A stretch of DNA of 64,000 nucleotides, from assembly GCA_016208255.1 (NCBI GenBank), contig JACQYK010000175.1, forward strand, positions 3,944 through 67,943, given 5' to 3'. This document shows positions 30,407 to 34,856 of the stretch, piece after piece. The notes under the pieces are model-generated. The model worked only from the letters and a program-made list of their open reading frames with translations. It did not search any database and was not told the DNA's origin. Position 1 is the first letter of the stretch. Each line of letters opens with the position of its first letter. The stretch comes from Deltaproteobacteria bacterium (GTDB taxonomy: Bacteria; Desulfobacterota; RBG-13-43-22). The position numbers were made by a program, and so were the translations under genes.

Positions 30407-31960
30407 GTGGACGAAAAACAGGAAAGTCCGATTCAGAAGTGGATGATCGCCCTGTCGATGATGACCGGCAGCCTCATGGTGGGCATCAACGGCAGTATTG
30501 TCAATGTGGCCTTGCCCCATATGCGGGGAACACTGGGGGCCTCGGTTGAGGAAATTGCCTGGGTCCCAACCGGTTTCATTATCTCCAGCGTCCTCATCAT
30601 GCCCCTCGTGGCCATGTTGAGTTCCCGGTTCGGAAGGAAACGGTTCCTCATTTTTTCGGCCATGCTCTTTGCCTTCTCTTCCATGCTTTGCGGATTGGCC
30701 TGGAATCTGGAATCCCTGATATTTTTCCGGGTTTTTCAAGGGTTAGGCGGCGGCCCCTTGATGCCGCTGGCCCAGGCCATTCTTAGAGAGACTTTTCCTC
30801 CTAAAGAACAGGCCCGAGCTATGGGTATCTACGGGCTGGGGGTTATTCTGGGGCCGGCTTTCGCCCCCACCCTGGGAGGGTGGATAACCGACAACTATTC
30901 CTGGCCCTGGGTCTTTTATGTCAGCGTGCCGGTCAGTATCATCAATATCCTTCTGGTTACCCGCTTCATCAAAGACCCGCCTTATCTTATCCGGGAAAAA
31001 GGAAAAATGGACTTCAGCGGCCTGTTCTTCCTCTGCGCCGGTCTGGGGGGGCTTCAGATCCTGTTGGAAAGAGGCCAGCAGAAAGATTGGTTTTCATCCG
31101 ATTTTATCATCCTGCTGGCCATTGTTTCCGGTTTAGGCCTCATCCTTTTCATCTGGAGGGAGTTGACCACTGATAAACCGGCCGTTAACCTGCGCATTAT
31201 GAAGGACCTTAATTTCACCGCGGGCGCCCTACTGATGGCAGTCCTCAGTCTGGCCTTTATGGGCGGTCTTTTCATCCTGCCCCTCTTTTTGCAGCAGCTC
31301 CTGAATTACCCGGCCTATCATTCCGGACTGGCGGTTCTTCCCAGAAGTATTGCCATGGCCTTCGCTATGCCGGTCAGCGGCCGTCTTTACAATCATATAG
31401 GACCGCGATGGCTGGTCGGAACCGGTCTTTTTGTGGTGGCGGTTTCCTTATACCAATTTTCCCGCCTTTCGCTGGTGGTCGGGTATTGGGATATTTTTTC
31501 CATCCAGTTCCTGCAGGGGGCCGGATTCGGGTTTATTTTTGTTTCGCTGAGCACGGCCTCTCTGTCGACGATCGCCAATCCCATCATGACCCAAGCCACC
31601 GGTCTTTTCAATGTCATCCGCCAGGTATTCGGGAGTATCGGCATTGCCGTTTCCGCCACCCTGTTATCCTGGGGGCAGACCCGGAACCGGTCCGTGCTGA
31701 TAGAACACATTAATCCTTTCAGGGACATCACCGGTGATCTGTTAAACAACCTTTCATCTTACTTTATGTTACGGGGGTTTGACCAGATAGGTGCGGAAAA
31801 ACGGGCCTTAAAATTACTGGAAGGGATCATCCTCCGCCAATCAACTATGATGGCTTATAATTACATCTATCTGATCCTGGCGGTCATGTTCCTGTTTTCT
31901 ATTCCTTTGGTCTTTTTTATTAAAGATATAAGAATTTCCGGTTTTAAGGAGGATTTATGA
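30407..31960 (+). CDS. MFS transporter, DHA2/EmrB type (14 TM)
   Basis: 517 aa. MFS motif A-like LSSRFGRKR, and the length fits a 14-TMS drug/H+ antiporter. Confidence 0.9.
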   Translation: MDEKQESPIQKWMIALSMMTGSLMVGINGSIVNVALPHMRGTLGASVEEIAWVPTGFIISSVLIMPLVAMLSSRFGRKRFLIFSAMLFAFSSMLCGLAWNLESLIFFRVFQGLGGGPLMPLAQAILRETFPPKEQARAMGIYGLGVILGPAFAPTLGGWITDNYSWPWVFYVSVPVSIINILLVTRFIKDPPYLIREKGKMDFSGLFFLCAGLGGLQILLERGQQKDWFSSDFIILLAIVSGLGLILFIWRELTTDKPAVNLRIMKDLNFTAGALLMAVLSLAFMGGLFILPLFLQQLLNYPAYHSGLAVLPRSIAMAFAMPVSGRLYNHIGPRWLVGTGLFVVAVSLYQFSRLSLVVGYWDIFSIQFLQGAGFGFIFVSLSTASLSTIANPIMTQATGLFNVIRQVFGSIGIAVSATLLSWGQTRNRSVLIEHINPFRDITGDLLNNLSSYFMLRGFDQIGAEKRALKLLEGIILRQSTMMAYNYIYLILAVMFLFSIPLVFFIKDIRISGFKEDL

Positions 31961-32598
31961 AGGAGAAAAAACCTGTGGTTATTACCGTATCGAGACAAAT
32001 AGGCAGCGGGGGTTCTTATATCGGCTATTTGGCGGCCAAAGAACTCGGGTTCAACTACATTGACCGCGAAATTTTACGCCAGGCCGCTGAACGTCTGGGC
32101 ACGGATCCCGGGGCCTTGGAATATCTGGATGAAAGATCTCCCGGCCTGATCGAGAAGCTTACCAAAGGGTTTTCTTTCGGCATGCCGGAAATATCCGTCC
32201 CCCTTCCCCAGAAACGAACGGTGGATCATAGGGAATTGTTTGCACTGGAGGGTAAAATCATGAATGAAATTGCCGACCGGTATAATGCCGTGATCGTCGG
32301 CCGGGGAGGATTTTATGCCCTGAAAGATCGGCCGGAGGTGTTGCGGATCTTTATCCATGCTCCTCAGGAATTTCGGGTCAAAAGAATCCTGGAAGCCCAA
32401 AAAAATAACGATATAAAGAAAATACAGGCCAGAGTTAAAGAATCGGATCAGATCCGGGCAAGATTTATTCGAGAAATGACCGGAGTGGATTGGACAGACG
32501 CACGGAATTATCACCTGTGTATCGACTCCAGCAGTCTGGATTTTTCCTCCATAACGGCCATGATCATCAAGTTGGTTGAGCAGAAGAATACCTCTTAG
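31957..32598 (+). CDS. Cytidylate-kinase-like family protein
   Basis: 213 aa. VITVSRQIGSGGSYIGYLAAKELGFNYIDREILRQAAERLG is characteristic of the Cytidylate_kin2 family. The ATGA start overlaps the MFS gene stop. Confidence 0.75.
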   Translation: MKEKKPVVITVSRQIGSGGSYIGYLAAKELGFNYIDREILRQAAERLGTDPGALEYLDERSPGLIEKLTKGFSFGMPEISVPLPQKRTVDHRELFALEGKIMNEIADRYNAVIVGRGGFYALKDRPEVLRIFIHAPQEFRVKRILEAQKNNDIKKIQARVKESDQIRARFIREMTGVDWTDARNYHLCIDSSSLDFSSITAMIIKLVEQKNTS

Positions 32599-32613
32599 GA
32601 ATTCTCGATCCTT

Positions 32614-33579
32614 TTGAAGTATCCGCGGCAAAGTGGCAAAAACAGCTTAACTTCCATGGGATTTGATTGGGAAACCTGTGCGGTCCTGACCACCATCGAC
32701 AAACAATCTCCCGACATTGCCCAAGGGGTCAACAGCCTGGGAGAGAAAAAAGAACAAGGAGCCGGGGATCAGGGCATGATGTTCGGCTATGCCTGTAATG
32801 AGACCAAAGATTTTATGCCTATGCCCATCTGGTATGCCCATCGTCTGGCCAGGCGTCTGGCCGAAGTTCGAAAAAAGAAGATCCTTGATTTCCTGAGACC
32901 GGACGGCAAAACCCAGGTGACTGTCGAATATCAAGACGGGAAGCCGATATCGATACCGGCGGTGGTTATTGCCGCTCAGCATAATCCCGATATAAGCTAT
33001 AAAAAATTACAGGAAGGGATTATTGAAATGGTCATTAAGAAGGTCATTCCGGCCAGCTTACTGACCAAGAAGACCCAGTATTATATCAACACCACCGGAC
33101 GTTTTGTGGTAGGCGGACCCATGGGGGACTGTGGGGTGACCGGCCGGAAGATCATTGCCGATACCTATGGAGGCCGGGGAAGCCACGGCGGCGGGGCCTT
33201 TTCCGGCAAGGACCCCTCCAAGGTGGATCGGAGTTCTTCTTATATGGCTCGGCATGTGGCTAAAAATGTAGTGGCCTCCGGTCTGGCCGATGTCTGCCGG
33301 TTACAGGTATCCTATACCATTGGCAAGGCCGAACCTCTATCTATTTTTGTGGATACCAGAGGAACCGGGAAGATACCGGACTTCCAGATCAATCAGATTA
33401 TCAGGCAGGTCTTTAGTTTTAAGCCGGCTGAGGTCATTGCCTATCTGGATTTATTGCGGCCTATTTATAAAAAGACGGCCGCCTATGGGCATTTCGGAAG
33501 AAATGAACCCGGCTTTTCCTGGGAAAAAATAGATAAGGTGGACATCCTTCGGGAGAAGGCGGGATTGAAAAAAAAGTAA
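32614..33579 (+). pseudogene. metK: S-adenosylmethionine synthetase lacking about the first 85-90 codons
   Basis: 321 aa starting at ...[26 protein letters not shown]. It has [12 protein letters not shown] and [16 protein letters not shown], but the N-terminal domain (GHPDK region) is absent. The same frame upstream runs straight into the TAG of the preceding gene. Confidence 0.75.
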
Positions 33580-33586
33580 ATTTTAA

Positions 33587-33627
33587 GGTTTCAAGGGTTC
33601 CAGGTTTCAAGGGTTCGAGGGTTTTAG
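33587..33627 (+). repeat. 16-bp tandem repeat, about 2.5 units
   Basis: GGTTTCAAGGGTTCCA GGTTTCAAGGGTTCGA GGGTTTTAG in the metK'-ahcY spacer. Confidence 0.9.
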
Positions 33628-33671
33628 TTTCCACGCCCGGGGCTTTAAGGATCGAATGGGCCAACCAGAGC

Positions 33672-34856
33672 ATGCCGGTCCTGGAAAGCATCCGGAAACG
33701 TTTTGCCAAAGAAAAACCCTTGAAGGGGGTTCGCCTGGCCGCCTGCCTGCACGTCACCACTGAGACCGCCGGCCTGATCCGGACCCTCAAAGCCGGCGGA
33801 GCCGAGGTGTCCTTGTGTGCTTCCAACCCCTTAAGCACTCAGGATGACGTAGCCGCGGCCCTGGTTCAACAAGACCGGGTACCGGTCTTTTCCATCAAGG
33901 GGGAAGACGGCCAAACCTATTATAAGCATATCTATCAGGCCCTGGAGGTTAAGCCTCATCTGACCATGGATGACGGGGCCGATCTGGTGTCCACCATACA
34001 CTCCGAGAAAAGGGGATTGTTGAAAGGGATTATCGGCGGCACTGAGGAAACCACCACCGGTGTGATCCGTCTGCGAAGCATGGCCGAAAAAAAGGTGCTG
34101 TCTTACCCGATCGTTGCCGTCAACGACGCCAACACCAAACATTTATTCGATAACCGCTACGGCACCGGGCAAAGCACGATTGACGGGATCATCCGGGCCA
34201 CCAACCGCCTCTTGGCCGGGAGCACCCTGGTGATCTGCGGGTACGGCTGGTGCGGAAGGGGCGTATCCATGCGGGCCAAGGGAATGGGAGCCGATGTGGT
34301 TGTTGTGGAAGTGGATGCCCTCAAAGCCCTGGAGGCGGTCATGGACGGCTTCCGGGTGATGCCGGTGGCTGAGGCGGCCAAAGTGGGGGATATTTTCTGT
34401 ACTCTGACCGGGGACATCAATGTGATTCGCAAGGAGCATTTCCTGACCATGAAAAACGGGGCCATCGTGGCCAACTCGGGACATTTCAATGTCGAGCTGG
34501 ACCTGAAATCCCTGGGGCAGATCAGTAAGAAACGACGCTTCATCCGGGAATATGTGGAGGAATATACACTGAACGGCGGAAAGAAAATCAACGTCCTGGG
34601 GGAGGGCCGGTTGATTAATCTGGCCGCCGCCGAGGGCCATCCTCCCAGCGTCATGGACATGAGCTTTGCCAATCAGGCCTTATGTGCCGAATATATAGTT
34701 AAAAAGGGCAAGACCTTGAAGAAGATGGTTTACGGCGTTCCGGTAGAGATCGACCAGGAAATCGCCAGGCTCAAACTGGCCTCCATGGGCATCAAAATAG
34801 ACAATCTGACTGCCGAACAGAAAAAATATCTGGCCTCCTGGGAGATGGGAACTTAA
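33672..34856 (+). CDS. ahcY: Adenosylhomocysteinase (short archaeal/Thermotoga-type)
   Basis: 394 aa. [33 protein letters not shown] and the NAD site CGYGWCGRG. The in-frame upstream codons still read [11 protein letters not shown] but have no start codon. Confidence 0.92.

Follow-up and report, generated by a model that had tools for sequence, protein, structure and literature searches.

Truncated metK and ahcY genes in a Desulfobacterota metagenome assembly, probably due to unsupported joins

In chlamydiae that carry the S-adenosylmethionine (SAM)/S-adenosylhomocysteine (SAH) transporter CTL843, the genes for SAM synthetase (metK) and SAH hydrolase (sahH) have been lost together, and Rickettsia has a counterpart of this transporter, RP076 (PMC3104491). 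These obligate intracellular bacteria have small, host-dependent genomes; the losses are old, and the transporter has been identified as a member of the DME family (PMC3104491). Genes can also be incomplete in databases because of assembly errors. Chen, Anantharaman, Shaiber, Eren, and Banfield (2020, Genome Res) described Ns that were inserted despite overlap in IDBA-UD and CLC scaffolds, reported 13 local assembly errors in one 1.13-Mb genome, and warned that databases acquire incomplete genes in this way (PMC7111523). Here we consider a 64,000-nucleotide stretch of DNA (the window) from a member of the Desulfobacterota, in which metK and the adjacent gene for SAH hydrolase (ahcY) both lack their 5' ends. 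The window is C132:3944-67943 of assembly G000 (6.35 Mb, 355 contigs), an uncurated, scaffolded short-read metagenome-assembled genome (MAG) that is used as a species representative.

An uncultured Desulfobacterota genus has an ordinary metK-ahcY operon, and the locus in the window is a copy of it that is damaged in the deposited record. Intact forms of the operon are available from relatives, including "uncultured delta proteobacterium MFD..." and "Deltaproteobacteria bacterium RBG_13_43_22". We compared the window to two of these. L003 is the metK-ahcY locus of G012, which is the closest syntenic genome in our set (88–92% DNA identity), and the two gaps were already visible against it. We then used L134, a 1632-bp contig from the Joint Genome Institute (JGI) with ~97% DNA identity to the window, which spans both lesions and has metK and ahcY whole. 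L134 was reached through a protein search, via the 391-aa MetK protein P0001, which is 99% identical to what remains of MetK in the window. The window has the same gene order as these operons and the same type of repeat element in the spacer, and the retained parts of the proteins are 96–99% identical. Unlike L003 and L134, the window lacks the promoter, the ribosome-binding site (RBS), and codons 1–82 of metK, as well as the RBS, the start codon, and the first 10–13 codons of ahcY.

As in Chlamydia and Rickettsia, the two enzymes concerned are SAM synthetase and SAH hydrolase. There are also differences: G000 is 6.35 Mb, it is free-living in type, it has 84 radical-SAM genes, and its lesions are recent, with remnants that are otherwise perfectly conserved. 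This is unlike the reduced genome of a host-dependent bacterium that has few SAM-dependent enzymes. With known MAG assembly errors, G000 shares Ns despite overlap, frame-breaking perfect duplications, and truncated open reading frames (ORFs) at clean joins, and its lesion rate is of the same order as 13 per 1.13 Mb. On the other hand, several of the missing pieces in G000 (333–724 bp) exceed the gap-size errors that we measured. The gaps themselves are real features of the deposited sequence. We consider it probable that they are local assembly or scaffolding errors (unsupported joins), and we infer that, as in all of its relatives, the metK-ahcY operon of the organism is ordinary.

Gaps in metK and ahcY

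The features around the two gaps are as follows.

31957..32598, + strand: cytidylate-kinase-like gene, 213 aa, intact (PF13189, E 1e-45)
32599..32650, + strand: residual spacer from the kinase-like gene to metK, ending at junction 1; aligns to L134 1-44 and to L003
32643..32658, no strand: junction 1, CAGCTTAA joined to CTTCCATG between 32650 and 32651; 333 bp absent relative to L134, no microhomology
32651..33579, + strand: metK remnant, codons 84-391 and the stop codon; Pfam M and C domains only, 99% protein identity to P0001
33569..33579, + strand: end of metK, TTG AAA AAA AAG TAA, with an A_AAA_AAG heptamer, from reading the sequence
33585..33626, no strand: left arm of a dispersed heptad/octamer repeat (AAGGGTTC-like), right arm gone; from Tandem Repeats Finder and from copies elsewhere in G000
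33627..33640, no strand: junction 2, between about 33633 and 33634; ~104 bp absent relative to L134
33634..33671, + strand: orphaned ahcY codons ~13-24, in frame, with no ATG, GTG, or TTG ahead; Pfam AdoHcyase match from profile position 13
33672..34856, + strand: ahcY as callable, 394 aa, from an internal Met25 (ORF and Pfam)

The metK frame runs from stop to stop at 32599-33579, and its first start codon is TTG at 32614. This ORF matches S-AdoMet_synt_M (PF02772, 8e-50) and S-AdoMet_synt_C (PF02773, 2e-62) with full coverage of both profiles, and it has no match to S-AdoMet_synt_N (PF00438), which includes the GHPDK motif. Similarity to full-length MetK begins at ...S-M-G-F-D-W-E, from 32653 onward. 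Compared to L134, exactly 333 bp are absent between 32650 and 32651: 86 bp upstream of the gene, codons 1–82, and 1 nt of codon 83. When the protein is aligned to structures of E. coli MetK, the missing part is equivalent to residues 1 to ~80, including GHPDK. An initial annotation of the window, made from the letters alone, had reported that both genes were damaged at their 5' ends, and the alignment to L134 bears this out; its estimate of 85–90 lost metK codons was slightly high.

The 333 bp of L134 that are absent from the window hold a promoter (TTGACA-16-TATTAT, positions 73-100, 11/12 sigma-70 matches), the RBS (AAGGAGG), and the ATG. A scan of the window found no promoter-like site upstream of the metK remnant, and the remnant has no RBS or native start of its own either. 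All of the 30 relatives that we searched have full-length open metK frames (377–470 aa), so the lesions in metK and ahcY are not chance features. (The metK N-terminus of G003, at locus L010, is frameshifted in its own record.)

The ahcY frame is open from 33537, and its first ATG, GTG, or TTG is the ATG at 33672. As the initial annotation had recognized, codons for a conserved N-terminal motif of SAH hydrolase (SAHH) survive ahead of this ATG without any start codon. About 104 bp of L134 are absent at about 33633/33634, namely the right arm of the repeat, the RBS (AAAGGA), the GTG start codon, and the first 10–13 codons of ahcY. The callable AhcY has 394 aa, whereas almost every one of over 100 relatives has 418 aa, and it is 95% identical to the 418-aa relatives. 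The ahcY translation matches PF05221 (AdoHcyase, 3.9e-59) only from profile position 13, and it matches the NAD-binding domain PF00670 (4.1e-48). The RBS of the callable gene is poor (AAGGA, 16 nt upstream of the ATG). Also, the first residue of the shortest solved SAHH (from T. maritima, 3x2e) corresponds to residue 10–11, which is ~15 residues before the callable start. (The ahcY of G004, at locus L005, is split by a frameshift in its own record.)

The spacer between metK and ahcY contains a tandem repeat at 33586-33620, which Tandem Repeats Finder describes as period 16 with 2.2 copies or period 8 with 4.9 copies. The initial annotation had placed this 16-bp repeat where the first ahcY codons should be. 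The repeat is real, but rather than replacing lost codons, it is the left arm of a repeat that is normal to the spacer. Exact copies of 29–37 nt are found elsewhere in G000 (C175:2890-2926 and C96:9693-9721), and weaker copies number in the hundreds. The spacer in L003 folds as a long hairpin, while the spacer in the window does not (z = +1.9). The family, with the units GGTTCAA or AAGGGTTC and the complement CCTTGGA, forms long imperfect hairpins in intergenic spacers, again with hundreds of copies. Further sites are L003 ~2447-2535 (reverse-complemented) and C286:170155-170255 of G000. Congeners differ in which variant of the repeat lies at this spacer, and L134 has AGCTATC-type heptads.

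The damaged genes are the only copies in the assembly, as the initial annotation had considered. S-AdoMet_synt_N is absent from all six frames of G000, so the N-terminal domain is not hidden in an alternative frame, and there is only one match to the C-terminal domain. When we ran tblastn against G000 with the N-terminal 95 amino acids of a relative's MetK, we recovered the last 13 residues only. Similarly, blastn and tblastn searches of G000 for the missing pieces of metK and ahcY gave no DNA or protein match. We did not find an archaeal-type methionine adenosyltransferase in G000, nor the Pfs/MTAN route of SAH removal. There are 84 radical-SAM domain matches in G000, and none of the 84 have internal stops. 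Because of these 84 proteins, and because there is no Pfs and no second or archaeal-type MetK, on paper the organism would need both MetK and AhcY.

We also asked how these genes have been evolving. Substitutions were assigned to lineages by parsimony with outgroups. On the G000 branch, dN/dS is 0.05–0.08 for the metK remnant and 0.07–0.12 for ahcY, which is indistinguishable from the intact sister lineage. Given these low ratios and the ~97%-identical intact allele in L134, the lesions are recent, and on an evolutionary scale they are essentially instantaneous. The exact junction patterns had no match in public genome and metagenome contigs. Look-ups of four exact proteins (truncated MetK, truncated AhcY, kinase-like, and HD) also had no match, although they may not have covered records of the window's own genome.

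In four congeners, we noticed a candidate "second MetK with an in-frame TAG." This TAG is the ordinary stop codon of an intact paralogue of ~400 aa, which shares ~40% identity with the main MetK and retains GHPDK. The paralogue is absent from G000 and G012. It is found at loci L138-L141:

G013:C110:57634-58611
G002:C270:33353-34330
G008:C30:30389-31366
G005:C86:13159-14130

Join errors and deletions elsewhere in the assembly

G000 contains 53 runs of N (1–127 nt long), which implies that it is a scaffolded short-read assembly. Four of these N-runs have exactly duplicated flanks (110, 38, 25, and 12 nt), and a fifth conceals a ~56-nt overlap (the five are at C141:24194, C332:4169, C102:30159, C56:9448, and C2:28170). 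Where a relative allowed calibration, the length of the N-run was off from the true gap by up to ~80–90 nt.

At least five perfect two-copy tandem duplications of 16–58 bp break ORFs in G000. One is in the window, at 43382-43413 (C132:47325), and the others are at C123:20313, C231:22783, C269:10993, and C292:4783. If one copy is removed, the frames are whole again; for instance, one grows from 188 to 309 aa and another from 396 to 579 aa. We also considered a genome-wide excess of perfect tandem duplications (15.4 per Mb in G000 versus 9.2 per Mb in G011), but this is not decisive by itself, and only the frame-breaking subset is informative.

To look for deletions like those in metK and ahcY, we compared G000 to 759 kb of G011 and to 800 kb of G009, which is highly contiguous (G009:C10 1-800000). 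Clean deletions affect the accA/accD carboxyltransferase fusion (212 bp, out of frame, C286:70839-70842), mnmG (249 bp, with loss of the FAD-binding motif, C230:~6640), asnA (724 bp, C152:1626), and an ADP-forming acyl-CoA synthetase (315 bp, C72:13686-13688). Others affect a histidine kinase (115 bp), a formate-dehydrogenase-like gene (109 bp), an HlyD-like gene (220 bp), and an aminotransferase (152 bp). Within the window, a pyrroloquinoline quinone (PQQ)/sorbosone-dehydrogenase-like gene at 58539-59198 has a ~527-bp internal, out-of-frame gap relative to its 408-aa orthologue in G006 (C157:6683-7859). This gene is present in 2 of the 14 genomes of the genus.

Altogether there are ~11–15 lesions, with metK, ahcY, accA/accD, and mnmG among them, or about one gene-breaking join per 40–80 kb. 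Indispensable genes are broken about as often as chance predicts. The lesions cluster by scaffold, with four on C72, two on C230, and several on C132. Of 11 junctions examined, 10, including those in metK and ahcY, have microhomology of only 0–1 nt; the remaining junction has 4 nt and lies in an A-rich spacer.

The type of lesion follows the assembly technology. Whereas G000 has deletions, G009 has 30 broken orthologues out of 303, mostly with single-base frameshifts, which suggests homopolymer errors from long reads.

Explanations for the gaps

If the gaps are assembly errors, then the assembly would join non-adjacent chromosomal sequence at two points ~1 kb apart. The first join would omit 333 bp with the promoter, the RBS, and codons 1–82 of metK, and the second would omit ~104 bp with half of the dispersed repeat and the RBS, the start, and the first 10–13 codons of ahcY. 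Contigs tend to end at multi-copy repeats. Junction 2 is likely to be at a contig break, because no more than ~8 nt separate it from the end of a repeat with exact 29–37-nt copies elsewhere. At most, the assembler may have followed a minority deletion haplotype; we infer the cause at the level of the reads.

We favor misassembly for several reasons. It is unlikely that one viable genome would lose metK, the start of ahcY, accA/accD, and mnmG while the remnants stay under purifying selection. An intact allele is present in L134, metK is whole in 30 of 30 relatives, and G000 has demonstrable join errors. Also, the lesion rate fits the published 13 errors per 1.13 Mb. If the intact allele was in the sample, its pieces could never have been binned, because the bin has no contig shorter than 2511 bp, and 333 or 104 bp is far less than that. 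As to how the joins arose, chimeras from multiple displacement amplification or the polymerase chain reaction and replication slippage are disfavored, as microhomology is essentially absent at the junctions. Simple abutment of contigs with a gap of zero, as the sole mechanism, is weakened by the sizes of the missing pieces (333–724 bp) and by the lack of N-runs on C132.

Several observations do not fit comfortably with misassembly. The gaps in metK (333 bp), the PQQ-dehydrogenase-like gene (527 bp), and asnA (724 bp) exceed the calibrated gap-size error of ~90 nt. Scaffold C132 has 0 N-runs despite having several lesions, and there is no repeat near junction 1 to account for a contig break. 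The joint loss of metK and SAH hydrolase is known in SAM-importing bacteria (PMC3104491). Finally, the totals of 40–400-bp indels are symmetric, at 19 versus 19 for G000 and G011 and 17 versus 20 for G000 and G009. The segments that are missing from G000 are more often intragenic (10/19 versus 5/19 in the comparison to G011, and 9/17 versus 4/20 in the comparison to G009), and of the four intragenic cases on G009's side, two are themselves a G000 N-run and a repeat array. Broken orthologues are only modestly more common in G000 (17/311 versus 10/320). Because the indel counts are symmetric and the rate of broken orthologues is only modestly raised, G000 is not massively degraded, and we rule out whole-genome decay.

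It is possible, although considerably less probable than misassembly, that the deletions are genuine and very recent and are carried by part of the population, and that the assembler traced this haplotype, which would be defective or complemented. In this case, pieces of the intact allele would be unbinnable: allele-specific fragments of 333 or 104 bp would be lost from a bin whose smallest contig is 2511 bp. The recency of the lesions, with remnants that still look like genes under selection, is as expected for such a haplotype, and with 7.5% estimated contamination, the bin could well mix strains. De Bruijn assemblers do not normally make junctions that are found in no read, and the hairpin-forming repeat at junction 2 could plausibly be a hot spot for deletion in vivo. 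But cells without MetK should not become appreciably frequent, and two independent lesions would be needed on one haplotype. Spontaneous bacterial deletions usually occur between short direct repeats, and microhomology is lacking at these junctions. The same type of lesion in accA/accD and mnmG also argues against this reading.

A real, fixed loss of both SAM synthetase and SAH hydrolase, with SAM imported from neighboring cells and SAH exported as in Chlamydia and Rickettsia, seems very improbable. The damaged genes are the only copies in a bin that is estimated to be 96% complete, and two functionally linked genes were struck together, which is the same pairing that was lost in CTL843-bearing chlamydiae (PMC3104491); on that score, the idea makes biological sense. 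However, a 6.35-Mb genome with 84 intact radical-SAM genes is not where such a loss would be expected; the dN/dS ratios show no relaxation of constraint; the genes are whole in 30 of 30 relatives and in the ~97%-identical L134; and the other indispensable genes that are similarly broken would be intolerable for a single viable genome. No candidate for a SAM/SAH transporter turned up, although we made no search for a specific family, and DME/EamA proteins are too common to be informative. The initial annotation had suggested that SAM synthesis would be compromised in a free-living cell. This does not hold up, given the intact ~97%-identical allele, the retained selection, the 84 radical-SAM proteins, and the similar breaks elsewhere in G000. 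That a large-genome member of the Desulfobacterota, of a free-living type, very recently became a SAM auxotroph that exchanges SAM and SAH with its community is, if anything, a shade less credible still. A real loss would make this organism the first large-genome, free-living bacterium shown to lack SAM synthesis, and it would imply cross-feeding of SAM in sediment or soil communities.

Another idea is that the remnants are expressed as functional fusions, with readthrough of the TAG of the kinase-like gene into the metK remnant, and with a -1 frameshift at A_AAA_AAG into ahcY that would restore its conserved N-terminal helix. As the initial annotation stated and frame arithmetic agrees, this TAG is in frame with the metK remnant and lies five codons ahead of the TTG at 32614. 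Furthermore, ahcY is in the -1 frame of metK and is open back to 33537, and the dnaX-type heptamer is directly before the metK stop. Yet each of these coincidences has a ~1 in 3 chance or better, no stimulatory structure is predicted downstream, and the first 80 residues of MetK, GHPDK among them, are indispensable for its function. L134 has no heptamer (it reads AAA AAG AAG there), and none of the relatives that we compared has such an arrangement. We give this idea almost no credence, and the heptamer and the in-frame TAG are probably a coincidence.

Biological loss of SAM synthesis is thus not supported, and there is nothing novel here unless the junctions are real and dominant. With about one gene-breaking join per 40–80 kb, affecting even metK, ahcY, accA/accD, and mnmG, metabolic reconstructions or claims of pseudogenization or gene loss that are based on G000 or similar uncurated scaffolds would be wrong.

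Neighboring genes and synteny

The region from 30.4 to 34.9 kb of the window contains four genes, all on the + strand. Besides those described above, its features and those just downstream are:

30407..31960, + strand: major facilitator superfamily (MFS) transporter gene, the conserved upstream neighbor (PF07690, E 7e-58)
34916..34950, + strand: stem-loop CCCCGGCGGTC-GGAT-GACCACCGGGG, then TTTTGTTATTT; read by eye, and not listed by the consensus scan

The order of MFS transporter, kinase-like gene, metK, and ahcY is common to G012, G004, and G009. The stem-loop is likely to be the terminator of the metK-ahcY unit. No known RNA or riboswitch was found in the spacers of the window or of its relatives: the sole Rfam match (E 0.45) is noise.

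Synteny with G009 and G004 is cleanly interrupted at several places in the window: 35441, 35578-37040, 10187-12186, and 21440-24820. The small HesB-like ORF has its 5' edge at 35441, and it is exactly there that ~2.3 kb of G009 is absent. At 35578-37040, ~11–13 kb of G009 and G004 is replaced by ~1.4 kb with an HD-domain gene. The other two places (10187-12186 and 21440-24820) are GH13 regions, and they look as though one ~4.7-kb segment of G009 were present twice, with different and complementary deletions.

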